Of a stretch of DNA of 64,000 nt, positions 31,832 through 63,062 are shown in pieces. A model generated the notes under the pieces. It was given only the letters and a program-made list of their open reading frames with translations. It did not search any database and was not told where the DNA came from. A program made the translations under genes and the position numbers. Each line of letters opens with the position of its first letter. Positions within the stretch are counted from its first letter, which is position 1. The stretch comes from an uncultured bacterium (GTDB lineage Bacteria > Verrucomicrobiota > Verrucomicrobiia > Verrucomicrobiales > DEV007): positions 27,505 through 91,504 of the forward strand of contig CAXBMO010000025.1 of the NCBI GenBank assembly GCA_963977015.1. The letters are read 5' to 3'.

Positions 31832-31961
31832 ACGTCGCCCCCCCTGATTCTCCAACCTAACACTCCACTAAAAGATGTTCTTCAACTATGAAAAAACAAC
31901 GGAACGCAAACGAGCGGAGTTTTCCCTATACAGGTAGGGCAGTTTTATTTTTATATTTTAA

Positions 31962-37103: not shown

Positions 37104-37119
37104 CTCGGTTGCGATAAAG

Positions 37120-37833: not shown

Positions 37834-37883
37834 TGATTCCTCAGGGGTGAATTTTTGTTGCCCTTGCCAATGAACGCAAAGTT

Positions 37884-41259: not shown

Positions 41260-42552
41260 ATGAACTCCCCCTTCAATCGCCGCCACTTCCTTCGCGGAAC
41301 CGGAGCGCTCATTGCTCTGCCCGCCCTCGAATCCATCGGCTTCCGACGCTTTGCCAGCGCTGCCGCCACCTCTGTCCCCTCCTCCGTTCCACCCAAGCGC
41401 GCCGTTTTTCTCGGCATCGGCTTCGGGGTAACCAAGGAGACCTGGTTTCCGGACGTCAACCAAACCGGCGGCGACTATGAACTTTCCGAGGGGCTCGCTC
41501 CGCTCGCCCGCCACCAGGCCGATATCACCGTGGTGCAGGGCTGCGCGAACCAGTACACCAACGAAGCCCACTGGGGCAGCACGTTCTGGCTCACGGGCGC
41601 CAATCGTTATTCCGTCCCCGGCCAGAACATGGCCAACAGCATTTCCGCCGACCAGGTCGTCGCGCAACACCTGGGTCAGGACACCCGTTTCTCTTCCCTC
41701 CATCTCAACGCCTCCGAACTTCAGGGTCACGGCCCCGGACTTTCCCTGGCTTGGAATCAACGGGGCAAGCCCGTCGCCGGGCAGGACGACCCCGTCCAGG
41801 TTTTCCACAAGCTCTTCTCGACCGACGACATGCCGCTGGAACAACGCCAAGCCGCCATCGCCGGGAACCGCAGCGTCCTCGACGCCGTGCTCAGCGAAGC
41901 CAAGCGCATGCAGCGCGGTCTCTCCAAGACCGACACCGACAAGCTCGACGAATACTTTCAGGGCATTCGCGACATCGAGACTCGCCTCAACAAGGACGAA
42001 GACTGGCTTGACGTTCCCAAGGCGAAAGCGCCCCTCGACGAGCCCGAACCCGGGTTGAAGGGGAAGGCTGAGATCGAGATCATGCAGGACCTCATCGTCG
42101 CCGCCTTGCAGACGGACAGCACGCGTTCGCTCACTTACCGCATGCCCGGCAACACGCTCCTGCAGAGTCTCGAAATCAAACACAGCGCCCACAATGTGAG
42201 CCACTACTCACCCGGCGAACGCATGGAGGCCTCCAAGCTGCGCGACAAGGCCCACAGCGAGCTCCTGGCTCGACTCATCGACAAGCTCAAGGCTACGAAG
42301 GAAGCCGACGGCTCCAGTCTCTTCGACCACACCACGGTGGCTTTCGGCTCGAACATCAGCTCGATCCACTACCTGACCAACTGCCCAACGGTCCTCACCG
42401 GCGGCGGAGCGAATCTCAAGCTCGGTCAGCATCTCGCGCTGCCGAAGGACACGCCGCTGTGCAACGTGTGGCTGACGATGCTCCAAGGCATGGGGATCGA
42501 GACCGAGCGGCATGGAGACAGCTCGGGAATCGTGAAGGAACTGCAGGGATAG
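41260..42552 (+). CDS. DUF1552 family protein, close paralog of 25569-26855
   Basis: Long identical stretches shared with 25569-26855 (e.g. NQYTNEAHWGSTFWLTGANRYSVPGQNMANSIS). Confidence 0.9.
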   Translation: MNSPFNRRHFLRGTGALIALPALESIGFRRFASAAATSVPSSVPPKRAVFLGIGFGVTKETWFPDVNQTGGDYELSEGLAPLARHQADITVVQGCANQYTNEAHWGSTFWLTGANRYSVPGQNMANSISADQVVAQHLGQDTRFSSLHLNASELQGHGPGLSLAWNQRGKPVAGQDDPVQVFHKLFSTDDMPLEQRQAAIAGNRSVLDAVLSEAKRMQRGLSKTDTDKLDEYFQGIRDIETRLNKDEDWLDVPKAKAPLDEPEPGLKGKAEIEIMQDLIVAALQTDSTRSLTYRMPGNTLLQSLEIKHSAHNVSHYSPGERMEASKLRDKAHSELLARLIDKLKATKEADGSSLFDHTTVAFGSNISSIHYLTNCPTVLTGGGANLKLGQHLALPKDTPLCNVWLTMLQGMGIETERHGDSSGIVKELQG

Positions 42553-42861
42553 CGAGGAAACCGACAACGGAGAAGATGAACCTTTCACCCCAACCCCTCA
42601 CTTCGCGACGTAGCGGAATTTGCAAAAAATTCCGACTCCTGCCGTGGCGACTTTCGGAAGATCTCGCATCTTCCGCTACGCTACTTGCCTGTCTGCTGCC
42701 TCTCCACTTTTCTTTGGCTGCGGATGACACCAGACCCGAGCTCCCCGAAAAGCACCTCGCCTTCCTCGAAAAATACTGCCTCGAGTGCCACGACGCGCTC
42801 ACGGAAAAGGGCAAAGTCAACCTTGAAGACATCCCCTTTCAGCAACTCTGTTTTTCTGTCT

Positions 42862-43985
<1,124 letters not shown>

Positions 43986-46900
43986 TCTGGCTCTAACACA
44001 GCCAAATGGCGATTCAAGATTGCACGGATACAACAACCAAGGTCAGCACGATCGCTGAAGCCGAGCTCTGGCAAAAAGTCCTCAACTCGATGAACTCCGG
44101 CGAGATGCCTCCCGAAGACGAGCTCCAGCCGGAGAACACGGAGAAGGCCGACTTCCTCGACGCCCTCGCCCAAACCATGGTCGCAGCGCGGCGATCGCTC
44201 TCCGACTCGGGCGGCGAGATCACGATGCGTCGTCTCAATCAACGAGAATACCAGAACACGATCCAGCACCTGCTCGGCGTCAGAGTGGATGTCAGCACCC
44301 TGCCATCCGATGGCGGCTCCGGAACCTTCGATACCGTGGGCGCTTCGCAGTTCATCTCCAGCGATCAGATCGAGCAGTATCTGAAACTCGGACTCAGCGC
44401 GATCGACGAATTGTTCGAACGTCAGGCGGCGATGGGACAGGACGCAAAAACCTTCCGGGTCGAACCGGAGACCACCGTCAATGTGCAGAGCCGCAAGAAC
44501 ATGGCAAAAATGGAGGAGGTGCAGGAACGCTACCTGCTCTGGAAAGCCGAGGTGGACAAGGCGGCCCTCCTTCCTGAGAACGAGGAAGTTCTCGCGCGGC
44601 TCCGCGAGAAGTACAAGCTCGACGACCTCACCAACAGCATCCGGCTCTATCAGAACGCCAACCTGCTCAAAGGAGCCCCGGATGCCACGAAGTTTGGCTT
44701 CCGCGACGCCAACGCCGCGTCCTTTTCATTCCAAGGCGGATACGGCCGGTCCCACGCCTACCTAAAGCACTATCTTGAGCTTCCTCACTGTGATCGAGGA
44801 ACCTATCTCAAGCTCGCCTGGGGGATCCAGCGCATCGACGTTCTCCCGGATCCGAAAGACGTTCCTCCGGGGACTTACAAGCTCAGGATTCGGGCCGGCA
44901 CGGTGGAAGGTTCCGATCCTTCCCGCCATTTCATTGAGTTCGGCCACCCGCAACGCGTCAACCAGGTTCCGGCCGGATTCTCCAGCCTGCCGATCGGAAG
45001 CCTCCAAGTCACGGGCACGGTCGAGACCCCTGAGATCATCGAGACCACCATCGAAATCGGACTGGACACCCCGCGCGAATTTGGCATCCAGGAACGCAGC
45101 CCTACCAACGGCAAAAGTGTTCGCACTGAATTCTACCGTCACAAGCGGGAGAACGGCTACGGCACGCCTCCCGCGATCTGGGTGGATTGGGTTGAGTTGG
45201 AGGGCCCGCATGAAACCACACCGAAGAGCTGGAAGCAACATCGCGAAGTCGAGGAGCATGCCAACGCCAAGGTCGGCGGAACCTACAATGGCTACTTCAA
45301 AGGCGGCCACGAAAGGGCCGTGGCCTTCCTCGAAACCGGCGAGCCTCAAAAAGGCATCACCGACGAACAGGAAGCGAAGTTTCGCATTCGAGCGTTTGAA
45401 GAAAACGGTCCGACCTTTCGCCGTTACCTCGAAGATCCGCTTACGAAGACCGGCTCATTTCTGACCATCCACAACCTGAACACGGAAGAGTTCATCGCCT
45501 TACCTCCGGAGCAGCCCTCTGGCTGGCGAAAGACGAAGCATGTGGTCGAGGAACTGCCCCCCGGCGAATACAAACTGCGCTTTCGTATCGGCACTGTCGA
45601 GGGCACACCCGAGGAACAGCACTTCGTCGATCTGGGTAGCGTTCCTGACAAGAATCAATTCATCCACCTGGCCACCTATCAGGTAACCGGCTCTACAGAC
45701 GAACCGGAGATCATTGAGGTTCCCGTCTCACTCACTCAGTCCGGCCCTCGCAAATTTGCGCTCCGAGAGAAGCGCGATCCAAAGGGCGATCTCGCTCGCT
45801 ACCGCGCCGCCCTCAAACAGACCGGCGTCGGCCCGAAACCCGCCCTGTGGATCGACTGGGTAGAGTGGGAAGGCCCGCTCGATTCGCCCAACAGCGCGTC
45901 CGCGGGGATGGATTGGTTGGTGAGTAGCGACGCTGATCCAGATGAGTCGTCGCGGGCCCGGAAGACCCTCGAACAATTCGCGTTCCGAGCCTTCCGGGGA
46001 GTCCGCCCGGAGAGCGATTTCCTCGATCGTCTGGCGGCGATCTTCGATGCTCGTCGCGCCGCGGGCGATCCGTTTGATATCGCGATTCGAACGCCGCTCA
46101 GCGTCATTCTCGCCTCGCCCGGTTTTCTCTATTTGAATGAACCGAGCAATGAATCCGAACGCCGCGAACTCACCGATCGCGAACTCGCCGTGCGCCTCGC
46201 CTACTTCCTTTGGAGCGCGCCGCCCGATCAGCAGCTGCTGGATCACGCCGAACGAAACGAACTGAGCAAACCGGAAATCCTCCGACAACAGGTCGATCGT
46301 CTCATTGCCGATTCGCGCTCCGATGAATTCGTCTCCGGCTTTGTGCATCAGTGGCTCGATATGGAGCGTCTCGACTTCTTCCAATTCGATACCACGCTGC
46401 ACCGCCAGTTTGACGAAAGCACGCGGTCCGCCTGTCGCGAGGAAGTCTATCAATCCTTCGCCCATCTGTTTCGTGATTCTGAGCATGGCCGACTCGGCAA
46501 TCTGCTCAAGAGCGACTACATCTTCGTCAACGGCCTGCTCGCCACCTACTATGGTATCGAAGACGTTACGGGGGATGAATTCCAAAAAATCAGCCTGCCC
46601 GCGGACTCACCACGTGGTGGATTGTTAGGCATGGCCGCGATCCACGCCATGGGAAGCGACGGCATCGAGAGCAGCCCCGTCGAACGCGGCGCCTGGGTCC
46701 TGCGCCATCTGCTCCACGATCCCCCGCCTCCAGCTCCGCCCAATGTTCCGCAACTCTCCCGCCTCGCGGACAAACCGCTAACCACTCGTGAAAAACTGGC
46801 CGCGCACATGGAGGAAGCCCAATGCGCCAGTTGCCATCGCAAGATCGACCCAATCGGCTTCGGTCTGGAGAACTTCAACGCAGCCGGCAAGTGGCGAACC

Positions 46901-47396
46901 GAGGAAGGAAAAGGCAAACGCGCCCACGAAATCGATCCCTCCGGCGCATTTCACAACGGCCCCGAGTTCGCCGACTACTTCGAGCTACGCGACCGGATTG
47001 CCAATCGCGAGGCCGACTTCGCCCGCGGCTTCACCGAGCATCTGATAGGCTATGGACTAGGGCGCCCCTTCGGCTTCACCGACGAGGATCTTGCCAACGA
47101 GATGACCGCAGGAGCAAAAGCCAAGAATTACGCCATCATCGAGTTCATTCAGGCGCTGGTCCAGAGCGAGCCGTTTCATCACAAGTAGCCACGAAAATCA
47201 GATCACGGTCTCTGCTCCTGCAACGTACGCAATCCGCGCCTGTCGTGATTGTTTATTGTGGACGATCTTGGCAACACTGATGTGGACTTGACCAAGGAGT
47301 CGATTCTCCGCACCTTCCGCTCGGGGGAAACGAATCTGCGGATTCCTAAAGTCGGAACGTCCCATGATTCTCCTTTCGTAATCTCCCACTTCCCGC

Positions 47397-50300
47397 TTGA
47401 CGAAACCAGCGTCTTTTGACGAGGATGCCGAGCAGCAGGAGGATATGGAACCACTTCTTGAATCATTAGCAAACCGCTCCTTCAATTGGGCCAAAGCACA
47501 CGCTTTGGCGAAGGTGAGTGATCTCTGCTATGAAGACCCGGCCCAGGGACAGGCAATCGCCCTTTCAAAATGGGGATTCCAGACCTGCCAATTTTTTAAA
47601 GTGGGCGATACCCAAGGCCTAGTGGCGTCAACTCCGGATGCCCTGGTCGTTGGATTCCGGGGGACCAAGGAACCTCGGACGTGGCTGAAAAACATCCAAA
47701 TCCAAACGGTGGAGGAGCCATATTACCGTGTTCACCAGGGATTTTTCAAAGGATTCAACTTGGTTCGCGACATCGTGTGGGAGAAAATGGAGGCAGTGGA
47801 GCCCAACTCCAAAATGCTTTGGCTCACCGGTCACAGCTACGGAGGTGCCCTAGCGACCATCCTTGCCACAGAGTTCTCGGGAACCTACAAACCGGACGGC
47901 ATTTATACCTTTGGGCAGCCCTGCACCGGCAAAGAGGACTTTGCTTACTACTTTGACTGGCACTTCCATGGCCGCTCTTTCCGCTTCGTCTATGGGGACG
48001 ACGTCATTACCAAACTTCCCCCGGGCTACTCTCATGTGAAGAGCCTCGTGCAGTTGGGAGACCAACGGTCCTCAGCGAATCCACAAGGTCCCGAGTTGCT
48101 CACCAACAGCGAGTTTGATCAGCTTCAACAAGAACTTGAGGACGAAGAGCTGCGTGGAAAAGCATTGGGTTTGTTAGGCAAGCTTGTTGATCATGACCTG
48201 GAGCTCTACCTGAACAAACTTGAGGAGAAACTACTTCAGGAGCCGGACTTGACAAAACGATGGGCGAAGCCGGATTTGGCGATCCCGCGATTGTTGAAGA
48301 GCCCCATCAAAACGGCAAAAGCCGCGCCGCCCAAACCCCCGCCGTATCTCGCCAAGCTTGAAGCCCTGCGGAGAAAACAACCGGAATCTCTCTTTCCTTC
48401 TCCGGCAGAGCAAGCTCCCCTCTCCGTGCACATTGTCTGGAGCCAGCATGAGGCTAAAGACGGTCCTAGCCCAGTGGTCGCGAAGTCACTGTTTGAGTTT
48501 TTGAGTCATCGCCTCGAGAATCAGCCCAATCTGGAAGCGGGAGTCGGAATCCCTGTCTATGCGGGACACCACTTTGACGCGGTCGAAAAGAAAATCGCCA
48601 ATCTCCAGGAATGGATCAAGGGCTATGATCTGCAGTTGAGATCCTATGCGAACGCGGATGCATTGCCACAATCAGGACGTTCGCTTGCCGTCATGGCTCG
48701 TTCAGGCGAGGGTTTACTTTTCAAGGGATTCGATTCCAACGGAGAGCCCTTCGAGAGATCGGAAGCGGACATTCCGTCACGCCTGGATGGCCAACGGCAC
48801 CAGCTCAGGAAATTGCTCGACTCGATTTTCCTCAACAAGGAAGAAGAAGATCTTTCCGTCGAAAGCCGCCAGACGCTTCTGGACTCGATGACAACTCTTC
48901 TCAGCCTGCCACCGCTGAGGCTGAAAGATCATCGCGAAATGGAGAGACTCTCGGCTAGCTTGGTTGTGGTGGTCCTGTTGGACAAGAATGCTTCGGTCGA
49001 TGATGAATTAAAGGCGTTCGCCAACCGGATTTTCTATTTGGAAGAGAGCCTCCGCAAAAAGGTCCACGTCATTCCAGTAATCTTGAATGCGACAAGTTCG
49101 ATTCATCTTCCCAGTAGCTTGATTGCTTCTGCTGGGGCGGCATTTCTTCCCAATTATCAGGAGAAAGCCAAATTGGTCTGCCATGAAGTCGCGGTGGAGA
49201 TTTGCCACCTGCTCATGAACAACAAGGACGCAGCGGATATCGAGGAGCAGAAACGGGTGCGGATATTCATCAGCTACGCCCGGGCTGACGAAGAACGATC
49301 TGGCGGCCTCGCCACAAAAATCCGTGACCGAATCGGAAAGAGCCGATTGAAAAGCTTTTTTGACAAGTACGACCTAGATCGCGGCGAGAGCCTCGATCAA
49401 CTCTCTGAAAATCAGAAGCGCTGCCTGACCTTGGTGGTTAGGACCGATTCTTACGCAGAAAGCCCCTATTGCCAGGCCGAGCTTCTCAAAGCGAAACAAC
49501 TCGGGATGCCGCTGGTTTTCATCAACGCCCTCAGCAAAGGGGAGGATCGTGGCTTGGTGTATGGCGGCAATTCCATCAACTTGGTGGCTGAAGGAGGGAA
49601 GGTCGATGAACGATTTCTGGACGAATGCCTCGATGCCTGTCTCAAAGCATGGCTTCGTCATCTTCACTTTGGACTCGCGGCGAGAGTCACCTTCAACCGG
49701 CAGGATATCCCGTTACAGCCGACCTACCTGTCCAGACCGCCGGAACTTCTCGATTTCGCCCAAGGCCCGTTAAGCGGCCAGCAACGCATGGTGCTGATCT
49801 ACCCGGATCCACCGCTGCCTCTCACCGAAACCGATCTCATGCGTAAGAACTACCCGAATGTTCGGTTCGCTACCCCTTCCATGCTCGCTCCGGATATTCT
49901 GCGAAAAACTCCGGTTCCTCCCTTGGACGGCTGGCAGATTGCCTTATCGCTCTCGGATAGTCCTGACCTGGCAGCCGATATTGAGCATGTTTCGGTAGAT
50001 CTGAAAGGCAGTCGCGAAGCCGGGTTACTAAGAGCTCACCTCAATGGCGCGATCGCCTATCTAACTCTGGCCTTGGCCCGTTCGGGCGCCGAATTGGGAT
50101 ATGGCGGACACTTGAACTCGATGGGGCATACTCAGTTGATCTCCGATCTGATCAAGGCGCATCGGCGCAGCAGAGCATCCAAAGGAGAGAGTTTCCTGCT
50201 CCACAGCTACGTGGCAGCGTTCCTCTGGGAAGACAACCTGAAGAAAAAAGACAACGATGACCAGAAGCGCTGGATCGAAGCCCATTTTCATCGCATTCCC

Positions 50301-52550
50301 GAGTATCCCACTCCGGCAGCAACCAACCCTGTCGATCAAGCCCATGAATTGGCAACCATGCGGACGATCATGGCAGAAAAGTCCGATGCCCGGGTTATCA
50401 TGGGAGGAAAGTCCTGGCCCAACGGAGACGGCGAGTATCAGGGTGGCTATCTCGGCCGCTTACCGGGTCAGGCCGAAGAAGCGATCAAACATCTGCTGGC
50501 AGGAAAACCGATCTATGTTGCCGGAGGATTCGGCGGTGCCTCTGAGATGGTTTCGAATGCCCTGCAGGGACAACTCGAATTCCTACCCAAAGAATATGAG
50601 CCCCAAAAAGCCAACGACATCTATCGGAATTTTTGTAGCGAATACGACCTAAGACATCCACTGAAACTGAAAGATCCCACGCCAAGTAGTTTGGACGAAC
50701 TCTGGGACCTCTTTTCGGATTTCGGAAGAGGCGTCTTCCACGACAAAGACGCCAAGCACCCTGATGAGCAAATCGCCTGGATCGATAATGGGCTGAGCCC
50801 GAGCGAAAATCGGCGTCTGTTTCAAGCCGTGGAATATGACGAGATCGGCTACCTCGTCACCAAAGGTCTCCGGACCCTTGCCAAGGCAAAGAGTGAGGAT
50901 AGTGCTCATCAAAAGCAGCTCCAAATTTCTCTGTTTAACGGTCCGCTTGAGGAAGCCCTCGACATCGAAGCTTATGCCGTCTGGGTTCTCGGGAGCGCAA
51001 CCCTACGCGGCGCGGATGGGGCGCTCGATACCAAGATGGAAGGGGGGCTTCGCCGAGCACTGGAGGAAGGCGAAAAGGACACCACCAAACGTAACCCAAT
51101 TTTACCGACCCATAGCGACCAACTTTTTGGCGACTACGTGATCCTCCAGCAAATGGGAGACTTCAGCGAACTCCTGGAAAAACCCGCCAATGAAACCAAT
51201 TTCTGGCTCATGCGGCAGGTCGAAGGTGGCGTGTGTGAAATCGTTAGCCGGGCCGCCCAGCATGGGGTCGAATCCCTCGCTCTGGTTCCCTTCGCCGTAA
51301 ACCTCGGTCTGGAGCCAAAACAATCCGTCGAGGCGATTCTCAACGGGTTGCTCCAGATGCAAACCGCGGAATCGGCTCAGGAAGGCGGCAACCATCGGTT
51401 AAACAGTGTGACCGTCTGCGAGAACGATTCCGGCCGATATCAGTTGATTCTTGATTTCTTCCGTTCCGAGGAAAAACGCAAAGAGAGGGCCATTGCCGTC
51501 CAGGAACTTCCTCCCAAAATTTCTGTGCAGGATCGCTCGCCGTTGTTTCTCAGTATTCGAGAAAACGAAGGGGCGTGGCTGCAGTTCGCTCGGGCCCCGG
51601 GAAGCAGCGGCGCAGTCCCCCATGACCCGGTTCGGATCGAGGCATCCGCCACCACACTCGCAGAACTAGCCGCGGACGACTCATCGTCCCCGCACTTCGA
51701 ACATCAGGCAGACTGGGGCTCAACCCTCGCGCGCCAACTTTTCTCCGGAAACGTCGCCGACGCGATTCAACAAAATCGAGACCGCCCCTGGGACATCCTC
51801 CACGACGAACAAGCCTCCACCATTCCGTTTGAACTGCTCTGTTTCGATGTGCCCGGTGCCGAACCTTTCCGTCCCGCACTCGATTGTGGCATGCGGCGGG
51901 GACTGCTCACTGGTAGCCTTCCCAGCCTGCCGTCCTACCGACGGCGAGGCTCCTCCATCCAGCTCCTGCTCGTCGCAAACCCGACCGGAGATCTTGCGGG
52001 AGCAGAACGCGAGGCGCAGGCCATCATGGACGCGTTCAAAGATTCCACCAACATCGTCGTCACCGCGATGCCGACTGATGGCAGCGTGACCAAGGACGGC
52101 GTGATGAACATCCTCCGAACGAACAGCTTCGACCTGGTCCACTACGCCGGTCACGGCAATTTCGACCCCGCCGATCCCTCCCGGAACGGGCTCAAGTTCG
52201 ATCAAAACGCCTTTCTCACTGCGGCGGACCTCTCCACCCTCCCGCCCGATTCCGTTCCCATGCTGGTGTTTCTCAACGCCTGCCAGGTGGGCAATGTCAC
52301 CAACACGGCAAAAGGCGGCGCCAGCCTCGCCCAATCCATTTTGCGTGCCGGCGTCCGGGGCTTTCTCTCCAACCGGTGGAATGTTTCCGATCATTCGGCC
52401 GAGTTGTTTGCCATCTCCCTCTATCGCGATTTGATCGAAGAACGCCCCCTAGGCGAGGCGATCACCCGCGCCCGGAGCAAGCTCTTCGCCAGCAAGCGCG
52501 CCGACTGGGCCAACTACGTGTTCTACGGATCTCCAGAGATTCGGCTTTGA
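47397..52550 (+). CDS. Multidomain class 3 lipase - TIR - SLOG - macro-like - CHAT (caspase-like) protein
   Basis: Lipase: VGFRGT, VHQGF, LTGHSYGG, YTFGQP, DVITKLP. TIR: IFISYARAD..SPYCQAE. SLOG: LGYGGH..MR..SDARVIMGGK..PGQAEE..YVAGGFGGA. CHAT: VHYAGHG, VFLNAC, WANYVFYG. Start codon uncertain (TTG 47397 or ATG 47445). Confidence 0.85.
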   Translation: MTKPASFDEDAEQQEDMEPLLESLANRSFNWAKAHALAKVSDLCYEDPAQGQAIALSKWGFQTCQFFKVGDTQGLVASTPDALVVGFRGTKEPRTWLKNIQIQTVEEPYYRVHQGFFKGFNLVRDIVWEKMEAVEPNSKMLWLTGHSYGGALATILATEFSGTYKPDGIYTFGQPCTGKEDFAYYFDWHFHGRSFRFVYGDDVITKLPPGYSHVKSLVQLGDQRSSANPQGPELLTNSEFDQLQQELEDEELRGKALGLLGKLVDHDLELYLNKLEEKLLQEPDLTKRWAKPDLAIPRLLKSPIKTAKAAPPKPPPYLAKLEALRRKQPESLFPSPAEQAPLSVHIVWSQHEAKDGPSPVVAKSLFEFLSHRLENQPNLEAGVGIPVYAGHHFDAVEKKIANLQEWIKGYDLQLRSYANADALPQSGRSLAVMARSGEGLLFKGFDSNGEPFERSEADIPSRLDGQRHQLRKLLDSIFLNKEEEDLSVESRQTLLDSMTTLLSLPPLRLKDHREMERLSASLVVVVLLDKNASVDDELKAFANRIFYLEESLRKKVHVIPVILNATSSIHLPSSLIASAGAAFLPNYQEKAKLVCHEVAVEICHLLMNNKDAADIEEQKRVRIFISYARADEERSGGLATKIRDRIGKSRLKSFFDKYDLDRGESLDQLSENQKRCLTLVVRTDSYAESPYCQAELLKAKQLGMPLVFINALSKGEDRGLVYGGNSINLVAEGGKVDERFLDECLDACLKAWLRHLHFGLAARVTFNRQDIPLQPTYLSRPPELLDFAQGPLSGQQRMVLIYPDPPLPLTETDLMRKNYPNVRFATPSMLAPDILRKTPVPPLDGWQIALSLSDSPDLAADIEHVSVDLKGSREAGLLRAHLNGAIAYLTLALARSGAELGYGGHLNSMGHTQLISDLIKAHRRSRASKGESFLLHSYVAAFLWEDNLKKKDNDDQKRWIEAHFHRIPEYPTPAATNPVDQAHELATMRTIMAEKSDARVIMGGKSWPNGDGEYQGGYLGRLPGQAEEAIKHLLAGKPIYVAGGFGGASEMVSNALQGQLEFLPKEYEPQKANDIYRNFCSEYDLRHPLKLKDPTPSSLDELWDLFSDFGRGVFHDKDAKHPDEQIAWIDNGLSPSENRRLFQAVEYDEIGYLVTKGLRTLAKAKSEDSAHQKQLQISLFNGPLEEALDIEAYAVWVLGSATLRGADGALDTKMEGGLRRALEEGEKDTTKRNPILPTHSDQLFGDYVILQQMGDFSELLEKPANETNFWLMRQVEGGVCEIVSRAAQHGVESLALVPFAVNLGLEPKQSVEAILNGLLQMQTAESAQEGGNHRLNSVTVCENDSGRYQLILDFFRSEEKRKERAIAVQELPPKISVQDRSPLFLSIRENEGAWLQFARAPGSSGAVPHDPVRIEASATTLAELAADDSSSPHFEHQADWGSTLARQLFSGNVADAIQQNRDRPWDILHDEQASTIPFELLCFDVPGAEPFRPALDCGMRRGLLTGSLPSLPSYRRRGSSIQLLLVANPTGDLAGAEREAQAIMDAFKDSTNIVVTAMPTDGSVTKDGVMNILRTNSFDLVHYAGHGNFDPADPSRNGLKFDQNAFLTAADLSTLPPDSVPMLVFLNACQVGNVTNTAKGGASLAQSILRAGVRGFLSNRWNVSDHSAELFAISLYRDLIEERPLGEAITRARSKLFASKRADWANYVFYGSPEIRL

Positions 52551-52737
52551 TGCTGGTTGGAGTCAACATCTTTGGTCATGCTATGATTTTGGGCCTTCGT
52601 GTCTCAGCTATGATTGGTTAAAAAGGGGATTCTCTGAGCACAATGGTCTGATTCGTCCACACCACTCTTTGCCAGAATGGAATCCTAAGCAGTTGCCAAA
52701 ATTTCTTACTCACCTTACTTGAGGTGCAAGAGAGCTG

Positions 52738-54096
52738 ATGACAACAAATTTTGCCAACGACATTTTCATTAGTTATGCTAGGGATGACAACGCAGAAATC
52801 GTGCCTGGCGATCCGCTATCAAGCTGGGTTACTGCGTTCAAGCGCCACTTGAAGGGAGAGATTCGGAGGCAGTTTGGTATAGAAGCCCGAATCTGGATGG
52901 ATGACGAAGATTACGGGGGGCAGCAACGCGATGAGAAAATCCTGCAGAATGTGGAGCAGTCTGCACTTCTATTCATCATCCTTTCTCCCACCTACATTAA
53001 GCGTCCTTGGTGCAGAGAGGAACGCCATGCGTTTCTTAGAACTGCGGGTGGACCGAGGGCTGCAGAAAATCGAATTTTCGTTATCCGAACGCGACTTACT
53101 GAGGAGAAAACGGTCCCTGACGAACTAAGGGGTATAAAGGGTTACACCTTTTTCCGAGAGACCAATGGCGGTGGCAGTATTCGCTTCGGTGATCCGCCAA
53201 GGGAGGAATACGCGCGCGACTATTACGGAGCCTTCCTTGACCTTGTCCCTGACGCGGCTCATGAAATCAAGCGCCTAAATCGTTCGCTTGAAGCAGAACC
53301 CGGAAGCAGCATCTATCTCGCCCAATGCCAACAGAGCCTACGAAGCAATAGGGTTCAGCTTGCCAATCGACTCAACGATGCGGGTTTTAGAATTTTTCCA
53401 GAACGCTATTATGAATCAGATGCGGCCGCGATTTACACCGATCTCTCGAAATGCTCCGCTTTCATTCAACTGGTTGATGAACGATTTGAGGAAGCCGATC
53501 AGCTACAATGGGAAGCGGCGTGTAAAACTGGGATCGCAACACTACGATGGCGAAGTATCGAGCCCCAACTAAACCCCAACATTGATGCACCTGACATTCG
53601 CAAAGACGATTTCGAAGATTTTCAAAGCGATGTTGTTAGGATCATTAGAGAGTTGGATTCCCAGGCTGCTGTCGTGAATTGTCTAAGCGAGAAGCGGAAC
53701 GGAACCACCGTTCCCACCGCGAGCATACCGGGAAACGTGCTCATATTGAGAGCGCAAGGAGATGCCAGGCTAGCGGATAGGGCCAGCATGGAGTTAGCGG
53801 ATTTCGGTGTCGACAATGAGGTCTTGGATAAAGAATTTCCGCTCAGCACGATAGCTGACTCGTCGGACTACTGCGGCTTAGTGGTAACAGTAGGTCAACG
53901 CTCGGAGAAATGGGCGCGTACACAACTTAGCGAGATGCGGAGATTGTCGATCGCGCGCAAAATGCCTCCACCCTTGTGTGCCGCATACAAAGATAAAGAA
54001 GACGACGATTGTTTTCTTCCTCTAAGGTTCAAAGGCTTATACGACCTCCCAGATAACTGGAAGCCGTTTTTATCGCAGTTGGGAATTCAAGACTGA
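52738..54096 (+). CDS. TIR-domain protein with a second TIR/DUF4062-like domain
   Basis: DIFISYARDDN..IWMD..ILSPTYIKRPWCREE; second unit IYLAQCQQSLRSNRVQL..LSKCSAFIQLV. Confidence 0.85.
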   Translation: MTTNFANDIFISYARDDNAEIVPGDPLSSWVTAFKRHLKGEIRRQFGIEARIWMDDEDYGGQQRDEKILQNVEQSALLFIILSPTYIKRPWCREERHAFLRTAGGPRAAENRIFVIRTRLTEEKTVPDELRGIKGYTFFRETNGGGSIRFGDPPREEYARDYYGAFLDLVPDAAHEIKRLNRSLEAEPGSSIYLAQCQQSLRSNRVQLANRLNDAGFRIFPERYYESDAAAIYTDLSKCSAFIQLVDERFEEADQLQWEAACKTGIATLRWRSIEPQLNPNIDAPDIRKDDFEDFQSDVVRIIRELDSQAAVVNCLSEKRNGTTVPTASIPGNVLILRAQGDARLADRASMELADFGVDNEVLDKEFPLSTIADSSDYCGLVVTVGQRSEKWARTQLSEMRRLSIARKMPPPLCAAYKDKEDDDCFLPLRFKGLYDLPDNWKPFLSQLGIQD

Positions 54097-54099
54097 TCG

Positions 54100-56871
54100 A
54101 TGTCCCCGCCACTCCCACCATATCCGTTCCTTGGGTTGCGTCCGTTTACCACAGCGGAAAGCTCGATTTTTTTCGGCCGCGCTGCTCAGATCGAAACGAT
54201 GCTATTGAAACTTCAGGACCATCGGTTTCTTGCGGTAGTCGGCGCCAGCGGCTCGGGCAAATCCTCCTTGGTTCGTGCTGGACTGCTACCTGCCTTGGAA
54301 GCCGGGATGCTGGACGCGAGAGAAAATTGGCAAATCGTTATTACCAACCCCGGCAGCAGCCCAATTGCAAATCTAGCGAACTCGCTAGAAGGGACATCCA
54401 CCCCAGATCCCAAGCGCTCTGCGCAAATCGAAGCCGAGTTGCGTCGTGGACCACACGGTCTCCTTTCAGTGCTTCGCCGTAGAGCTCAAGATTCTGGACC
54501 TATCCTCATACTCGTCGATCAATTTGAGGAGTTGTTTCGCTATCGACGCCGGAGTCAAGGTGGTGCAAAACGCAACGAATCCGCTGCATTTGTTAATCTT
54601 CTCCTCGATGTGACGAAGCAGGAACGAATGCCAGTTTTCGTAGTCGTCACAATGCGCTCTGATTTTTTGGGCGATTGCAACGCATTTTACGGTCTGCCCG
54701 AAGCGATGAATGAATCTCAGTTTCTGACGCCACGCCTCACCCCAGATCAAATTCGAGAGGCGATCACTGGACCGCTGAAGCAATTTCGCGCTAATTGGGA
54801 GCCGCAATTCCTTGATCGGGTAGTCAATGATATGGTAGCGGATGTCGATCAATTGCCCCTGATGGAGCATTGCCTGATGCGATGTTGGTGGCGGGCGCAG
54901 CGGCGTTCGACTAGCGAAACGGAAAGCCTGACGCTAACGCTTAGCGATTACGAGTTTGTTGGTGGAATTGACCAAGCTCTTTCCAACCATGCTGATGAAG
55001 TCTATCTCGAATTAAAAAGGGAAAATGACGATGACTTGTCCAAGGATGAGGATGAAAACTATCTCCAACTGAAGCGCGACAAAGCCAAGGAAAGGGAAAG
55101 GATTGCTAAGCATCTCTTTCGCAGCCTGTGTGTTCCTGGCGCAGACAAGCGATACACCAGGTGGCCGGTCAGCGTTGCTGAAATTGCCGCAAAATGCGAC
55201 TGCGAGGAGAACGATGTTCGAGAGGTCGTGAAGGTCTTTGCGAATGGATCTAAACAATCCGATGAGCCTCGACATTTCATCTTCGAACATCCAACCGAGC
55301 AACTGCTCGACATCAGCCACGAGGCGATCATGTGGCAGTGGTCAACATTGAAAGAATGGCTTCAGGAACAACCGGAGAGTTCCCAATCCCGACTGCCACT
55401 CAATAGAGATGAGGATTCTATTGAAGAGAAGGAAAATTCCCAAAGCCAAACAACAAAGAGCAAGCTTCCATTCACAGACCCGGTTAAAGACCGTATCCAC
55501 TTGTACCGCGGCCTTACTCCAGCCTCAATATTTCTTCTAGGTGATCTTTCTAATTTTGAAACAAATCATACCAGTGAGGTGATTCAGCGCGTCATTCTTT
55601 CGGGTGAAGCGAACTTGATGCAGAATTCCCATGGAGAAATCGGGATTGATCTGAATATACCTTGTAGGGTTTTCAACATCCCGCCCCCCCCGGGGGGCAC
55701 CAGCGTCGAAAATCAATCTGAGTTTGATCTGGAAGTCATCGCCAGCTTAGTCAGGTCGTGCGAGATCCCTTTTATCGTCCTGATTTTGAGCCCTGTTCCG
55801 GGCGGGTCGACAGAAAGCTCACAAGAGCGAATATCTAACCGCCACTTGGCTGAGACTCTTGGCCGAATTCGCAACAGTTGCCAACGGTCTGAGGAGGACG
55901 AACCTCACGTCCTCGTACTCAATCCGAATTGGGACCGGCAGTTCTGGGAAAAAGAGCAAGGGTTAGCTTACCCGGGAGGCACCGGAGACTTTTTCGAACT
56001 CTACACCGCGGAGCGAACGATCGAAAATCCGTTGCGTCGCCACTACTTCGCCTTGCGGGTCCTTTTTGAACTGCAGCGGGCGCTTTTCACGGCAAACCAA
56101 CCCATTCCAGCGGGCAAAGACGCGAACGGCAAGGAAGTGTCGGTAAAGATCTTCATCAGCCATGCCAATAGGGACGGCATACCACTGGCTTCCGCCCTGC
56201 GTTCCCAGTTCCACGACATGGCATGGCTGGAGCGTTTTTACGATTTCGAAGTTCTCAAACCCGGCCAGACGGATTGGCAGGACGTGCTGAAGTACGCCGG
56301 CCACGAAAGCCTTCTTCTCGTGCTTCGCACAAATGCCTTCGATCAGCGTCCCTGGTGCCTCCAGACAGTGATGTGGGCCGAAAAATATGCTCGCCCGATC
56401 GTCATTATAGATGCCCGCTCTAGTGGAACACAACTATCCTCTACATTCCCCTATAACGCCAGCAACGCAGTCGTCGTTCCTGGTGACGACACCCTGCGTG
56501 TCCTCACCGTTTGCATGCGCGAGTTACTGCGCAGTTCTCTGGCTTCTCACATGGCGCCCAACAAAACCGACGCCACGGTGTTTCTTCCACGAACGCCTAC
56601 TCTTACTTCCCTCTACACGGCAATGAACCTAATCGAAGAGAAAGGGAGTTCCAAGCCGCCCGTTATCGTCTATGCGGGACCACCTCTGGAAGACGGCGTT
56701 CGCCGAGCCGCCCAAGAGTTACTGCGCAGCCTTCGCCCCGATTCGTCTCTCTTCACCCTAGCCGAATACCGCGCCGCCTCCGCGATCGACGGTTTGCCCG
56801 TTGCTGAAACCCGACCCAATTCCACGTTGGTCACCCCTCCCCCTACCGAACCCGGCTCCGAACCGTCATGA
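54100..56871 (+). CDS. nSTAND1-type P-loop NTPase fused to a C-terminal (probably inactive) TIR module
   Basis: PFLGLRPF..FFGR, GASGSGKSSLVRAG (Walker A), ILVDQFEELF (Walker B), TMRSDF, LPLM, ISHEAI..W..LKEW; TIR KIFISHANRDG..RPWCLQTV. Confidence 0.87.
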   Translation: MSPPLPPYPFLGLRPFTTAESSIFFGRAAQIETMLLKLQDHRFLAVVGASGSGKSSLVRAGLLPALEAGMLDARENWQIVITNPGSSPIANLANSLEGTSTPDPKRSAQIEAELRRGPHGLLSVLRRRAQDSGPILILVDQFEELFRYRRRSQGGAKRNESAAFVNLLLDVTKQERMPVFVVVTMRSDFLGDCNAFYGLPEAMNESQFLTPRLTPDQIREAITGPLKQFRANWEPQFLDRVVNDMVADVDQLPLMEHCLMRCWWRAQRRSTSETESLTLTLSDYEFVGGIDQALSNHADEVYLELKRENDDDLSKDEDENYLQLKRDKAKERERIAKHLFRSLCVPGADKRYTRWPVSVAEIAAKCDCEENDVREVVKVFANGSKQSDEPRHFIFEHPTEQLLDISHEAIMWQWSTLKEWLQEQPESSQSRLPLNRDEDSIEEKENSQSQTTKSKLPFTDPVKDRIHLYRGLTPASIFLLGDLSNFETNHTSEVIQRVILSGEANLMQNSHGEIGIDLNIPCRVFNIPPPPGGTSVENQSEFDLEVIASLVRSCEIPFIVLILSPVPGGSTESSQERISNRHLAETLGRIRNSCQRSEEDEPHVLVLNPNWDRQFWEKEQGLAYPGGTGDFFELYTAERTIENPLRRHYFALRVLFELQRALFTANQPIPAGKDANGKEVSVKIFISHANRDGIPLASALRSQFHDMAWLERFYDFEVLKPGQTDWQDVLKYAGHESLLLVLRTNAFDQRPWCLQTVMWAEKYARPIVIIDARSSGTQLSSTFPYNASNAVVVPGDDTLRVLTVCMRELLRSSLASHMAPNKTDATVFLPRTPTLTSLYTAMNLIEEKGSSKPPVIVYAGPPLEDGVRRAAQELLRSLRPDSSLFTLAEYRAASAIDGLPVAETRPNSTLVTPPPTEPGSEPS

Positions 56872-57743
56872 TCGATTCCAATTCTCCCAGCGTTTTGAAA
56901 CGAAGCCTGAAAAGTCGCGTTATCGGCATCTCCGCTAGCCTCGGCGAGAACCATGCCGCATTTGGTATGAAACAAGACGAATTGGACCGTGTCCTGAGTC
57001 GACTTTGCGAGGCACTCCTCGGGCACGGAGCCAGGCTCGCGTTTGGCCATGATTGGCGGCCAGACGGCGTTATGGACGTGATTGTCTCCATGGCCCTGCA
57101 ATACAAACTCCAGGTTGCCGCCGGAAGCGATCCCCGCGACCTCAAAGAACCTCGAGTCAAGAACTTTGTTCATTCTGAGACCCAGTCTGCCATGCCAGCC
57201 GAGGTGCGTGGTGAGCTGCAAGGCTTGGTCGAAGTTTATCAATGCGAGAAGGTCCAGGATGGATCCCTCGATCGCGTTCCCGCAGAGACCCGCTTCCGGC
57301 TGGCGCTGCTGGCGATGCGCGGCGAGTTGGTCGCATCTTCCGATACCCTGATTAGTATCGGTGGTCCCACCTTCAAATATGCGGGATGGTTCCCCGGCAT
57401 TCTCGAAGAAGTCCTGCGCAATCTCCAAGCCGGACATGGTGTCTTTCTCTGTCGCTCGTTCGGCGGGATTACCGCGATGCTTTATGATGCGTATCTCAGT
57501 GACGATCCGGAAGCTAAGGACGCAGCTCGAAAGATTCTTAGCGAACGGATGAATGAGGGGCTGGTGGAAATGGCGACCGTGCTTGGAACTGACCATGAGG
57601 CCTATGGTAAAGTTTACGAGTTGTGGGATGTGTTGAAGCGTTGGGAAACCCGGAAAGTCGGCGGAACCATGGCTCTCGATGCCGACACCATCGTGACTGA
57701 GTTTCTTATCTGGGACAAGGAGCAGATCCACCACGATTGGTAG
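56868..57743 (+). CDS. Stand-alone SLOG-domain protein
   Basis: IGISAS, GARLAFGHDWRPDG, LLAMR..SDTLISIGG..YAGWFPGILEE..CRSFGG; ATGA-coupled to the STAND gene; resembles the SLOG in 47397-52550. Confidence 0.78.
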   Translation: MIDSNSPSVLKRSLKSRVIGISASLGENHAAFGMKQDELDRVLSRLCEALLGHGARLAFGHDWRPDGVMDVIVSMALQYKLQVAAGSDPRDLKEPRVKNFVHSETQSAMPAEVRGELQGLVEVYQCEKVQDGSLDRVPAETRFRLALLAMRGELVASSDTLISIGGPTFKYAGWFPGILEEVLRNLQAGHGVFLCRSFGGITAMLYDAYLSDDPEAKDAARKILSERMNEGLVEMATVLGTDHEAYGKVYELWDVLKRWETRKVGGTMALDADTIVTEFLIWDKEQIHHDW

Positions 57744-57876: not shown

Positions 57877-60800
57877 ATGATAAGAAAACTACTGAGATTG
57901 TTATGCATGGGCGCATTGTCGGCTCTAGCTGGATGCACCAATCAAGCGAATATCGATTCCTCAATCGATCACCTTGCCGGATCGCTCAAGGAGGCGGCGG
58001 AAACTGACGATTGGTTCAAGGAAGAAAAGGATGATGATGACGATGAGTCCCCGGGCCTACTTTCAGTCCAAGATGCGCGAGCCGTCATTCGGGCCCATCT
58101 CATTCTGGAACAAGCAGGCGGCGGAGAAGGCGCCGATTGGAAGCCGGATGACCTATCAGAGCAAACTCTCGAGCTGGCCAAGCAAACGCTGTCACCTACA
58201 GAATTCAAAGAGGCCCGAGACTTGGATTTGGACTTCTCCAAAATGCTGCCGGAAGACCGTGCCCGATTGGTCAAGGATGCTAAATCCACCCTTGCGGAGG
58301 TAACCCAGCACACACAAGTGGCACGAGCAAATGGCTCGTTGCCAAAACTGGCCAGGGTCGAAGTAATCGCGAAAGAAATTCAGGCGGACTTGCGGAAATT
58401 GGCCCCACGATCTCCGATCCCTAAAAATCCTCTGGCGCTTTTGCCAGCATCCGAACTTCGTGGTGCGGTGGACGGTCTCCAAAGGATGGAGCGCTCTCTG
58501 GCGGAATCACATGCCCTGACAGGCATAAAAGGCACGGTCAAGTCGGCTCAACTCTTGCTGGTGAAACAATATCGCGAGCAGTTTGAAGCCGTCATCGGCT
58601 CCGATGAGCAGCGGGTTTTTGAAGAGCAACTCAGGGACATTTCGAAAGAGATCTCCACACAGCAATGGGCCGAAGCCGAGGCCAGCCGAACGAAGCGCAT
58701 CGCGGCAAGTTGGAATCGGAAAATCGTTGAACTGAAAGCCGCGACCGGTTGGCCGGAGATTCTCATCGAAACGACTCCCACGCGTGGCCCTCCCTTGGAA
58801 AAGGTCGCGATGACTAGCGTAAGAGCTTTTGATGCAGATCCCCGGCAATGGATCAACGCTGAAGCCAATCTCCGAGCACTTTCCGAGGAAATCGTCCGTA
58901 ATCCCAACCTCCCCGAAGAATTTCGGAAACCCGCCATCAGCCCCCATCAGCGCGTCGCGCTTCTTCTCGAAACTGAATCGCTCAGGCGCATTCAAAGGAC
59001 GCTATCGCCTCTGCTTGCTGATGCACCTTCCAGCCCCGATTCAAAGCTCTTCCCGGAACGGAAGTCCCACTTGGTTCGGTGGCAGCAATCCGTTGAAACG
59101 GAGCTGGCCCGAAGAGCAAATGGGGGTCCCCGCTTCAGCACCACCGACGGCGCAGTGGACAAGTTGATAGCAACCTATGACCACATCAATAAAGCGGTTC
59201 AGCCCCGGGGAGAGGCCAACCTGCTTCGGATGGTTGAAGTTCGCTATCCCGGCGGCAAGCACCTGCCACAAGGTCTTGCCTCCGAAGTTCAATTTCTACT
59301 GCAACTCAAGGCCAACAGCTTCATTGCACAATCCAATCAACTATCGAAACTCTTCCAGGAGACGGCCAACCAGCGATTGGCAATGGGGACGGAAGCCAGC
59401 AGCATTTCCCTGAAGGACGCGAAAATGGCGGGGGCCCATCTTTCCTTCGAAATGGACAGCTTTGTCAAAGAAGCCCAGCGCATGGGTTTCAAGTTCGATG
59501 CGGTATTGCCCGATTTGCAGAAATTGAAGGCGATGTTTCCACCGCGCCCTCCTCCTGGATCAACGCCCGGCGTGGCTGCCTCGACAAATCCACTTTTGCC
59601 CAGTCAACCGGGACTGCACAAAAGCATTGTCACCCTCGAACAGAATCTTGCACAGCTTCAACGTCAGATCAGTGATAAGCTGGTGCAAAGTGAGGGCATC
59701 AAGACTTCGCCCGTTGCGTTCGCCTCAGACAAAGGGCGACTCATTGCAAGCCGAGCGGACTTCAAAGTCAACATCGTCGATTGGAAGAGCTTCCAATTCA
59801 ACGCGGCTCAATCACGGCTCCCCAAAGAACACGCTGACTGGCAGGGGCGGCTTAGCCCGGAGGGCAAGCCATTCGATTTCCGCACCGAAGTCAAGCAGCC
59901 GCGAAACTTTCGCGCTCTGGGAGGAGGCATTCATCTGGGAGAAACTGCTGAAGTCTCCGGTGACTTCAGCGACAAAGCCCTAATTTTTGAGGAGGGAAAA
60001 GGGCTCTTCTTCCGCGACCCGAAGGGTAAGGAATGGATGATCGATTCCGAAAGTGATCCCGTCGATCTCAAAGCACTCTACCGGTTCGCAATCTCAGGCC
60101 GCAATGCCGCGATTTCGATTGGATGGGGAACCGAGCGGACGTCTGTGTTCGATCAACCAGAGTCACCGGGCCAAACCGTGCTCCTCGACCCCTATCTCGT
60201 CGACACGTCCGTCGGTCAGGACCTGATTCTGGCGGACACGATTCCATGGTCGTTTGACGAACCGAAATTGCCCAATGGTCGGGATATTTCTTTTTCGAAA
60301 CAATTCCGCGACGCCTACCAGGAGTTTAGAGACAATGACGCGCAAGAACTGCGGTCGGTGGTCGAAAACGTCCAGCCATATCGCCCTGCAGATCGATCGA
60401 AATGGTTCTCCGTTCTGAATTCCCCTGAAATCCCGGTCGTCATTCGATCTTTGCTGAAATTTGACCAAGTGTCCGATGAAATGAAGGAGTGGCTGGTGGG
60501 CCGGAAACTCATGGATGAGGCAACTCAAATACCTGATTTTCCGTTTCAAATCTCCGATCCGCAACTGTGGCGTGAGACGATTGAGAATTACTTCTATCAG
60601 CAGATTTACGATTCCAACCTCGAGGAAGCCAAGGATCTGGGAATGTCTACCTTCGAAGCAAGACAGGCCCTGGAAAATATTTCTTACAAAATACGATCTT
60701 CTGCGCGAACGACCACTGCAAAGGTGATCCAGGAGTTGAATCTCGAAGACAGCAAAAAGATGCTCGACGACTTGCCGTCGTCCTCGGATGAAGCTCTCAA

Positions 60801-61341: not shown

Positions 61342-61358
61342 TAACAATCCTGATCCTT

Positions 61359-62180: not shown

Positions 62181-62206
62181 CGTATTGCGATGAGATTGTT
62201 CCGTTG

Positions 62207-63051: not shown

Positions 63052-63062
63052 GGCGTGTCATT

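Follow-up and report, generated by a model that had tools for sequence, protein, structure and literature searches.

What would a bacterium do with a lipase, a TIR domain, a SLOG domain, a macro domain and a CHAT protease in a single polypeptide? The question is raised by the open reading frame (ORF) at 47397-52550 (+) of the window, the 64,000-nucleotide (nt) stretch of an uncultured Verrucomicrobiota genome analysed here. A first-pass annotation, made from the sequence alone, had described its product, P0001, as an all-in-one fusion with three intact catalytic centres that could make, sense and execute its own signal. We find a core of five domains that recurs in a modest, widely scattered family, and a lipase that is one plug-in end module among several. 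The members are probably conflict proteins with an anti-phage or abortive-infection role, and the working that we tentatively place first is that of a self-contained, Thoeris-like suicide effector gated by NAD+/ADP-ribose chemistry.

Domain composition of P0001

P0001 is encoded by a single uninterrupted frame that opens with TTG, from which all residue numbers are counted. The one large fusion frame of the annotation is confirmed by its 1717 open codons and by the recurrence of its domain order in unrelated assemblies. The likelier product starts at Met17 and has 1701 amino acids (aa), because the ATG at 47445 is preceded by AGGAGG and because the database copy P0002 (1701 aa) and the Atlas record both begin there. 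The protein is real, cytoplasmic and the product of one gene; inspection of its sequence and Pfam detected neither a signal peptide nor a domain for secretion or delivery. A promoter and terminator scan of 46900-53000 gave no more candidates than were found in shuffles, and no RNA run was listed among the sequencing runs.

The N-terminal domain is matched by Pfam Lipase_3 on residues 84-209 (1.3e-23, 83.9 bits against a cut-off of 22), and a phmmer search of solved structures matches it to fungal class-3 lipases at 5e-15. In the phmmer alignment GHSYGG (145-150, nt 47829) lies over GHSLGG, which gives S147, and the lipase Asp is matched by the second Asp in GDDV (within GDDVITK, 200-206), which gives D202; H266 in VDHDL (264-268) is assigned as the catalytic His from the D/E-H-x-L-x-x-Y motif and its position. 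This triad assignment follows the residue numbering of the reference lipases. Ser, Asp and His are each conserved in all four lipase-bearing homologues aligned, and the residues proposed earlier from GHSYGG, DVITKLP and DHDL are all present, the His by motif and position. The same genome also encodes a stand-alone 310-aa class-3 lipase (G000:C15:19694-20368, -) that shares 35% identity with the fusion over residues 13-222 of the latter, and comparable stand-alone lipases occur in many relatives.

Between the linker and the TIR domain lies a domain, N2, which the annotation missed and which is conserved ahead of the TIR throughout the family. AlphaFold2 (AF2), run on a 26-sequence alignment, gave a four-strand alpha/beta model with a predicted local distance difference test (pLDDT) score of 75.9. 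The model is flavodoxin-like and its best VIA-align match is the TIR of Cat1 (Z 11.0, root-mean-square deviation (rmsd) 2.4 Å, 123 residues aligned), followed by TIR-STING (Z 10.2) and by TIRAP, AtTIR, RPS4 and MyD88 (Z 8.8-9.5). A TIR-like assignment is made only tentatively, because CheY-type receivers come close behind (Z 8-8.8) and because Foldseek of the model against the PDB gave no match at E <=0.001. Pfam returned nothing consistent for 12 N2 members, the N2 profile matched no solved structure by sequence, and hhalign found no similarity between the N2 and TIR alignments (probability 0.5%); an Atlas look-up of residues 335-618 gave only leads below 0.9, some of them TIR clusters. The family alignment has no conserved Glu in N2. 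P0001 itself carries a predicted helical insertion of about 90 residues in N2 (437-525; 48705-48971 +) that none of the other 25 aligned N2 sequences has.

The TIR domain proper is matched by Pfam TIR_2 on residues 623-701 (2.7e-8; 34.8 bits, with the cut-off at 28). The family TIR profile matches plant TIRs (RPS4 at 3.8e-6), with its Glu column over the Glu of RPS4 WCVRE. By this alignment E695, the last residue of YCQAE (691-695; codon 49479-49481), occupies the position of the catalytic WCxxE Glu of TIR NADases, which bears out the earlier reading of a TIR with its Glu retained. Eleven of 14 aligned members and 77 of 101 stored relatives retain the Glu; of the latter 101, 100 have K700.

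Pfam PF18163 (SLOG cluster 2) matches residues 843-1091 at 4.9e-33 (115.3 bits against 25.3), far above its cut-off, in agreement with the SLOG domain called earlier at about 49930-50880. The SLOG clusters were reportedly defined by Burroughs et al. in 2015. P0001 has the motifs PGQAEEA (1023-1029) and GGFGG (1043-1047), and the PGxxEE and GGFGG columns are kept in 109-112 of 114 stored relatives (PGxxEE in 109-110).

The segment that follows the helical connector had been called macro- or M17-N-like, the weakest call of the annotation, and the call was right. Residues 1092-1445 were folded by AF2 on a 12-sequence alignment (mean pLDDT 72, with 80-93 over model residues 80-285), and the model was compared with 48,161 chains by VIA-align. 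The best match is macro domain 2 of PARP9 (Z 18.4, rmsd 2.7 Å, 177 residues aligned, model 81-279); after many macro domains come the N-domain of E. coli PepA (Z 15.8) and the type II Thoeris protein EcThsA (Z 9.8). Nearly all of the 50 matches listed, 48 of them at Z >=8, are macro, PARG or M17 N-domains, and Foldseek likewise finds macro domains at E ~1e-7. Furthermore, the relative P0006, which aligns to P0001 1171-1713 at 4e-39, matches Pfam Peptidase_M17_N at 2.5e-11. Residues 1172-1370 are thus predicted to adopt the macro fold. By sequence, Pfam Macro is not matched on P0001, and the family profile reaches only TARG1/OARD1 among solved structures, at E ~1. The glycine-rich loop has the family consensus GGAGAALD, from which P0001 (RGADGALD) differs; G1205 is kept in 120 and E1342 in 123 of 146 stored relatives, with 18 gaps.

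The chain ends in a CHAT domain (Pfam, residues 1444-1712, 2.7e-29, 102.9 bits against a cut-off of 24). Both the His of HYAGHG (1582-1587) and the Cys of FLNAC (1625-1629), which had been recognized at first sight, are invariant in all 14 aligned members, and of 139 stored relatives 134 retain the His and 135 the Cys. Together with the SLOG PGxxEE and GGFGG motifs, this pair is under the strongest constraint among the stored relatives. At the level of sequence, the three catalytic centres (lipase triad, TIR Glu and CHAT dyad) are intact, as had been claimed.

A conserved core with interchangeable ends

A word-indexed search gave 17 matches among 7,994 scored candidates, including two further Lipase_3-TIR-SLOG-CHAT proteins, P0003 and P0004 (41% identity), and a form without lipase, P0005. 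Scans of genome and metagenome contigs gave 24 and 23 loci. With purpose-built hidden Markov models, the order N2-TIR-SLOG-macro region-CHAT was found complete in 23 distinct loci, and more copies are cut at contig ends. We then searched residues 619-1717 exhaustively against 1.84 billion representatives of 50%-identity clusters, which gave 15,516 matches at E <=0.001 and 294 at <=1e-30. Among the best 150 representatives, 74 combine TIR, SLOG, macro region and CHAT (the cluster of P0001 included) and six of these also have the lipase, P0037 being a cut amidase-lipase form; 34 are macro-CHAT proteins without TIR or SLOG, and about two dozen, a number of fragments included, are N2-TIR-SLOG proteins that lack CHAT. 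The architecture is therefore genuine and is shared by other proteins. The annotation was to count as refuted if it proved common and already characterized: it is not unique, and no characterization was found as far as our literature searches go.

The gene is accessory, because no full-length match was found in the 40 relatives searched, where only G018 has the core (1226 aa, without lipase), and because three genomes of the same genus (87, 92 and 59% complete) gave, with P0001 as the query, nothing beyond lipase-level matches.

By sequence comparison the constant core is [TIR-like N2]-[TIR]-[SLOG cluster 2]-[macro]-[CHAT], with interchangeable modules at its ends, a division that the annotation did not see. 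The modules were identified by Pfam scans of long forms (21 proteins in one scan, plus others) and are listed in Table 1 with the features of P0001. The same types also occur as separate adjacent genes, namely a caspase at L033, L048 and L001, an amidase at L001, L004 and L040, and a metallophosphatase at L049. Since they are fused in some members and adjacent in others, we regard these modules as effectors tied to the core.

Three long forms illustrate the range. L002:9146-15040 encodes 1964 aa with Amidase_2 and lipase ahead of the core, and L039:4120-9480 encodes 1786 aa with a metallophosphatase behind CHAT; L048:5349-10712 is an ORF of 1787 aa with extra length as in L039, known from its length alone.

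Table 1. Features of P0001, with positions in the window, and end modules of related proteins.
Feature	Residues	Nucleotides	Strand	Details or carriers
Whole ORF		47397..52550	+	1717 codons from TTG; ATG 47445 (Met17) gives 1701 aa
Class-3 lipase	~17-295	47445..48281	+	Putative triad S147 (GHSYGG), D202 (GDDV), H266 (VDHDL)
Pro/Lys/Ala-rich linker	296-340	48282..48416	+	Contains KAAPPKPPP, 308-316
N2, flavodoxin-like domain	341-617	48417..49247	+	Conserved family-wide before TIR; AF2 model
TIR	620-770	49254..49706	+	Catalytic-position Glu E695 in YCQAE
SLOG cluster 2 with conserved N-terminal extension	771-1091	49707..50669	+	Pfam hit 843-1091, nt 49923-50669
Helical connector	1092-1171	50670..50909	+	Invariant WxxNGLxxxENxxLF; helices, low-to-middling pLDDT
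Macro domain	1172-1370	50910..51506	+	Gly-rich loop RGADGALD, 1204-1211; predicted by AF2 and fold search
Beta-rich connector	1371-1443	51507..51725	+	Low-confidence model, pLDDT 44-60
CHAT caspase-like protease	1444-1712	51726..52532	+	Dyad H1586 (HYAGHG), C1629 (FLNAC)
End module Lipase_3				P0020, P0021, P0022, P0024, P0025, P0003, P0004, L031
End module Amidase_2 + Lipase_3				L002, P0037
End module Peptidase_C14 caspase, N-terminal				P0033, P0055, P0074, P0078
End module DUF7379 hydrolase				P0089
N-terminal extension, no family assigned by Pfam				P0058
End module metallophosphatase, C-terminal				P0060, L039
Patatin on CHAT-less N2-TIR-SLOG				P0155 (1074 aa)

Proposed working and competing explanations

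No partner gene is conserved beside the core in the scanned flanks of the 23 loci, which means that the core has to be capable of acting by itself, and in this one sense the all-in-one label holds. Precedents for the single parts come from systems that use nucleotide messengers: in Thoeris, a SLOG domain senses 3'-cyclic ADP-ribose (3'cADPR; type I), a macro domain senses His-ADP-ribose (His-ADPR; type II) and the TIR-activated effector of type IV is a caspase-like protease, and in type III-B CRISPR a SAVED-CHAT protein cleaves a caspase to activate it.

From the domains and these analogies we infer the biochemical steps, the role in defence and the passage of a signal within a chain or between copies. 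A trigger would probably be sensed by the N2-TIR pair, as in ThsB-type TIR proteins, which would switch the TIR on. The TIR may then cut NAD+ to an ADP-ribose-type nucleotide, to be bound by the SLOG and/or macro pockets of the same chain or of neighbouring copies. Binding would license the CHAT protease and the lipase, which could break down the proteins and membrane lipid of the infected cell and so cause its death or a halt in its growth. It is plausible that P0001 both makes and senses its own signal. A self-made signal is not obligatory across the family, since the TIR Glu is lost in two of the four aligned lipase-bearing homologues (P0003/L001 and L002) and kept in 77 of the 101 stored relatives.

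Several observations weigh against this working. The three of 14 aligned members that lack the TIR Glu (P0003/L001, L002 and L013) have no other TIR gene in their scanned flanks. No curated defence model matches P0001, PADLOC giving only partial CHAT and TIR matches and NCBIfam ThcB4 30 bits where 220 are required. The SLOG profile finds only a spurious Kelch repeat (E ~1) among solved structures by sequence, and, as described in PMC9503650, SLOG and macro domains can serve not as sensors but as processing enzymes for ADP-ribose derivatives. In the window, three free-standing TIR genes (at 52738, 61359 and 62392) lie within 11 kb downstream of P0001 and make signalling in trans possible there. 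Finally, the flanks were scanned against Pfam as subsets of their ORFs (17 in the window, 62 elsewhere, and 54 of 129), and some contigs are short.

The main rival, quite possible in this window and on balance somewhat unlikely, is that P0001 receives its signal from elsewhere. It would then be a ThsA-like multi-effector in which SLOG and/or macro respond to a nucleotide produced by other TIR proteins, such as the three encoded downstream, and its internal TIR would be an NAD+-depleting effector beside CHAT and lipase, as in TIR-STING or TIR-SAVED. Apart from the window, L010, L011, L036, L040, L047, L048 and L049 each have a separate TIR gene in the flanks that were scanned, which makes 8 of 23 loci. 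The systematic Thoeris survey of 2025 counts TIRs found in such contexts among the NAD+-depleting effectors (bioRxiv 10.64898/2025.12.03.692087, section 5). Dispensability of the TIR Glu in about a quarter of relatives is what would be expected of one of several redundant effectors, and among the best structural matches to N2 are the TIR domains of Cat1 and TIR-STING, both sensor-TIR effectors. However, the other 15 loci have no separate TIR gene in their scanned flanks, and one of the lipase-bearing members, L031, sits among housekeeping genes: to one side of it lie lepA and the genes for a Glu/Gln-tRNA synthetase and a shikimate dehydrogenase, and to the other a gene of the enolase superfamily. 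Nor are the neighbouring TIRs orthologous; their similarity is at the domain level only. To our knowledge, the sensor-TIR effectors described so far always adjoin a signal synthase, which also counts against reception alone.

A self-contained effector could be built as a full cascade in one chain, which we think unlikely. In it the N2 pseudo-TIR and the TIR, as a tandem unit, would sense infection and make an ADP-ribose-type messenger, SLOG and macro would read it in the same molecule as a two-key check, and CHAT would free or activate whichever terminal module the lineage carries (lipase, caspase, amidase or metallophosphatase). If true, this would be a bacterial analogue of inflammasome-type, protease-driven effector release, and it would join in one protein the SLOG and macro receptors that are otherwise used in separate Thoeris types.

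The full model of the annotation is, in our judgement, distinctly unlikely: P0001 would make and sense its own signal, and CHAT would cut its own chain at KAAPPKPPP to release an active lipase. The intact CHAT dyad does share a chain with a terminal effector across a flexible linker, and ends that are swappable, or encoded by adjacent genes, would fit a protease that activates a cargo. The CHAT-to-caspase cascade of type III-B CRISPR is a precedent, and four relatives carry an N-terminal caspase. Self-cleavage at the linker, however, found no support: among the four lipase-bearing homologues the linker differs in both length and sequence, with no recognisable cleavage motif, and the TIR Glu is lost in half of them. 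In P0155 a patatin is joined to a CHAT-less N2-TIR-SLOG core, so an N-terminal lipase-type effector needs no CHAT for its attachment. The metallophosphatase module stands at the C-terminus (P0060 and L039), where the release site would have to differ.

It is also improbable that SLOG and macro are enzymes rather than sensors, an N-glycosidase and an ADP-ribose hydrolase, respectively. They would convert or destroy the products of the TIR, setting a threshold or yielding the final toxic or signalling molecule, and CHAT and lipase would be controlled otherwise, for example by oligomerisation. The near-invariant PGxxEE of the SLOG (109-110 of 114) resembles a catalytic pair, the macro loop of P0001 departs from the family consensus, and PMC9503650 treats SLOG and macro domains as co-occurring processors of ADP-ribose derivatives. 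In the Thoeris types that have been studied by experiment, on the other hand, both are ligand sensors.

A role other than phage defence, which we rate as very improbable, would make the family a device for regulated cell death or for conflict among kin, such as has been described in multicellular or colonial bacteria, or else a toxin directed at other cells. Sets of TIR, SLOG, macro, peptidase and STAND NTPase domains are found in conflict systems of multicellular prokaryotes (PMC7159879), the members are, by their record names, mostly Planctomycetota, Verrucomicrobiota and Myxococcota-type, and fused or neighbouring peptidoglycan amidases could point to the cell envelope. In P0001, however, neither a signal peptide nor a domain for secretion or delivery was detected, and no evidence here separates such a role from phage defence.

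An assembly artefact or a dead gene can be dismissed: the genome is a draft of 51 contigs, the window ends at a contig end and scaffold L029, 100% identical to the gene, may not be independent, but the frame is open throughout, contigs from four sequencing runs (two studies) cover at least 99% of the gene without joints or loose ends, and homologues with the same domain order in other organisms, at 35-48% identity, already refute an artefact. One contig spans the lipase-to-N2 junction (47300-48758) and another N2, TIR and SLOG (49143-50463), which, with the unrelated assemblies, excludes the misassembled fusion that had been feared. In single runs there are bins of the gene that no contig covers, which is uninformative either way.

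Relation to known systems and neighbouring genes

The proposed self-contained effector is Thoeris-like in its working, yet P0001 lacks the defining layout of separate ThsB TIR and effector genes in one operon: its TIR and sensors are in one chain, and no Ths model of PADLOC matches it. With type I Thoeris (ThsB TIR and ThsA SIR2-SLOG) it has in common a TIR with a Glu at the catalytic position and a SLOG domain, of the kind that in type I senses a TIR-made cyclic ADP-ribose isomer. It differs in being one chain instead of two genes, in having CHAT and lipase instead of SIR2 as putative outputs, in a SLOG that belongs to Pfam 'cluster 2' and has no sequence match to a solved SLOG, and in its additional TIR-like N2 and macro domain. 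With type II it has in common a macro fold beside a TIR, as reflected in the EcThsA match, but here the macro domain precedes a protease instead of a membrane-pore module, has no Pfam Macro match and is closer to the PARP9 and PARP14 macro domains and the M17 aminopeptidase N-domain (Z 15-18).

A caspase-fold output of a nucleotide messenger is common to P0001, as we read it, to type IV Thoeris (N7-cADPR) and to the SAVED-CHAT-PCaspase system of type III-B CRISPR, where CHAT acts upstream of the caspase. P0001 has SLOG and macro in place of an unnamed C-terminal domain or SAVED, with everything in one chain. The PADLOC SAVED_CHAT match (7.8e-5) covers profile positions 142-267 on residues 1573-1708, which is the CHAT part only; PADLOC detected no SAVED part, and P0001 is not a SAVED-CHAT fusion. 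Type III Thoeris, with several TIRs and a SLOG effector, resembles the island downstream of P0001 in its multiple TIR and SLOG genes. Membership in type III was rejected, as ThcB4 stays far below its cut-off on P0001 and reaches 17.9 bits on a neighbouring 219-aa protein.

TIR-STING, TIR-SAVED and the CARF-TIR protein Cat1 likewise fuse a ligand-sensing domain to a TIR, and the N2 fold is nearest the TIRs of Cat1 and TIR-STING. The patatin lipase CapV of the cyclic oligonucleotide-based antiphage signalling system (CBASS) kills the cell by membrane damage, a role proposed here for the P0001 lipase. Unlike these, P0001 has no cyclase or CD-NTase partner gene, and its lipase is of class 3 and not a patatin (as in P0155). 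The hydrolase-macro-CHAT proteins (P0006-P0011; 34 of the best 150 representatives), likewise uncharacterised, are homologous in the macro-CHAT half (4e-39) and have an N-terminal alpha/beta-hydrolase, but lack N2, TIR and SLOG. Plant EDS1 and PAD4 are lipase-like receptors of TIR products, so that a class-3 lipase fold is tied to TIR signalling there too. EDS1 matches the P0001 lipase only weakly (0.027, phmmer), whereas the latter is far nearer to fungal lipases, has a full triad and has no EP domain; a specific link was dropped.

Our literature searches found no paper on the P0001 architecture; the SLOG-defining paper and the bioRxiv supplements, which lay outside their reach, may list it. 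The mapping of bacterial TIR signalling is advancing fast. However, the largest survey consulted removed TIRs in standalone proteins by design (bioRxiv 10.64898/2025.12.03.692087, section 5), so single-chain forms fall outside the current catalogue, and the word 'CHAT' does not occur in its text. In the present family a single gene brings together sensor folds known from Thoeris types I and II and an effector class known from type IV, and its killing modules can be exchanged. One clone could reveal which ADP-ribose derivative is read by a cluster-2 SLOG and its macro domain, and would be a compact test bed for whether such a ligand can gate a CHAT protease and for how a cytoplasmic class-3 lipase stays silent. 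It would also offer a functional lead for the hydrolase-macro-CHAT proteins.

The P0001 gene heads an island in which G+C drops from ~0.57-0.59 to 0.51-0.56, from 48 kb through the window end. An IS110-family transposase lies 3.6 kb upstream of the gene (42862-43818, -), and both features fit an acquired island. Directly downstream, 52738-57743 (+) is a tight run of three genes, whose products are a TIR protein of 452 aa, an nSTAND1 NTPase of 923 aa and a cluster-2 SLOG protein of 291 aa; the SLOG gene overlaps the NTPase stop by 4 nt. Residues 682-863 of the NTPase resemble P0001 621-807 (27% identity, 3e-11), with Thr at the position of the TIR Glu. By sequence, the run resembles a TIR-SLOG unit that is divided over separate genes and has a STAND NTPase to drive it. 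Among the 23 loci, nSTAND1 genes occur in three (the window, L006 and L049), and at L049 the core gene is adjoined by a related pair of TIR and nSTAND1-WD40 genes.

The next segment, 57877-63779, encodes a protein of 1154 aa, which begins like a lipoprotein (…LSALAGC) and has no match in Pfam, NCBIfam or PADLOC, and then a 273-aa TIR protein; on the opposite strand lie a 219-aa TIR protein (TIR_2 at 2.6e-30, ThsB-like PADLOC matches) and a 238-aa protein. Upstream, 26684-35539 and 41260-47188 encode large PSD/PSCyt proteins (DUF1592/1588/1585/1587/1595, 'Planctomycete cytochrome C') beside DUF1552 (HXXSHH) proteins, a set typical of Planctomycetota and Verrucomicrobiota. Between them, 35949-38732 is poor in G+C (0.48 at 36-38 kb) and contains an ORF of 384 aa whose match to cytochrome P450 is confined to the C-terminal part of the latter, with genes for a methyltransferase and a TauD-family dioxygenase beside it on the opposite strand.

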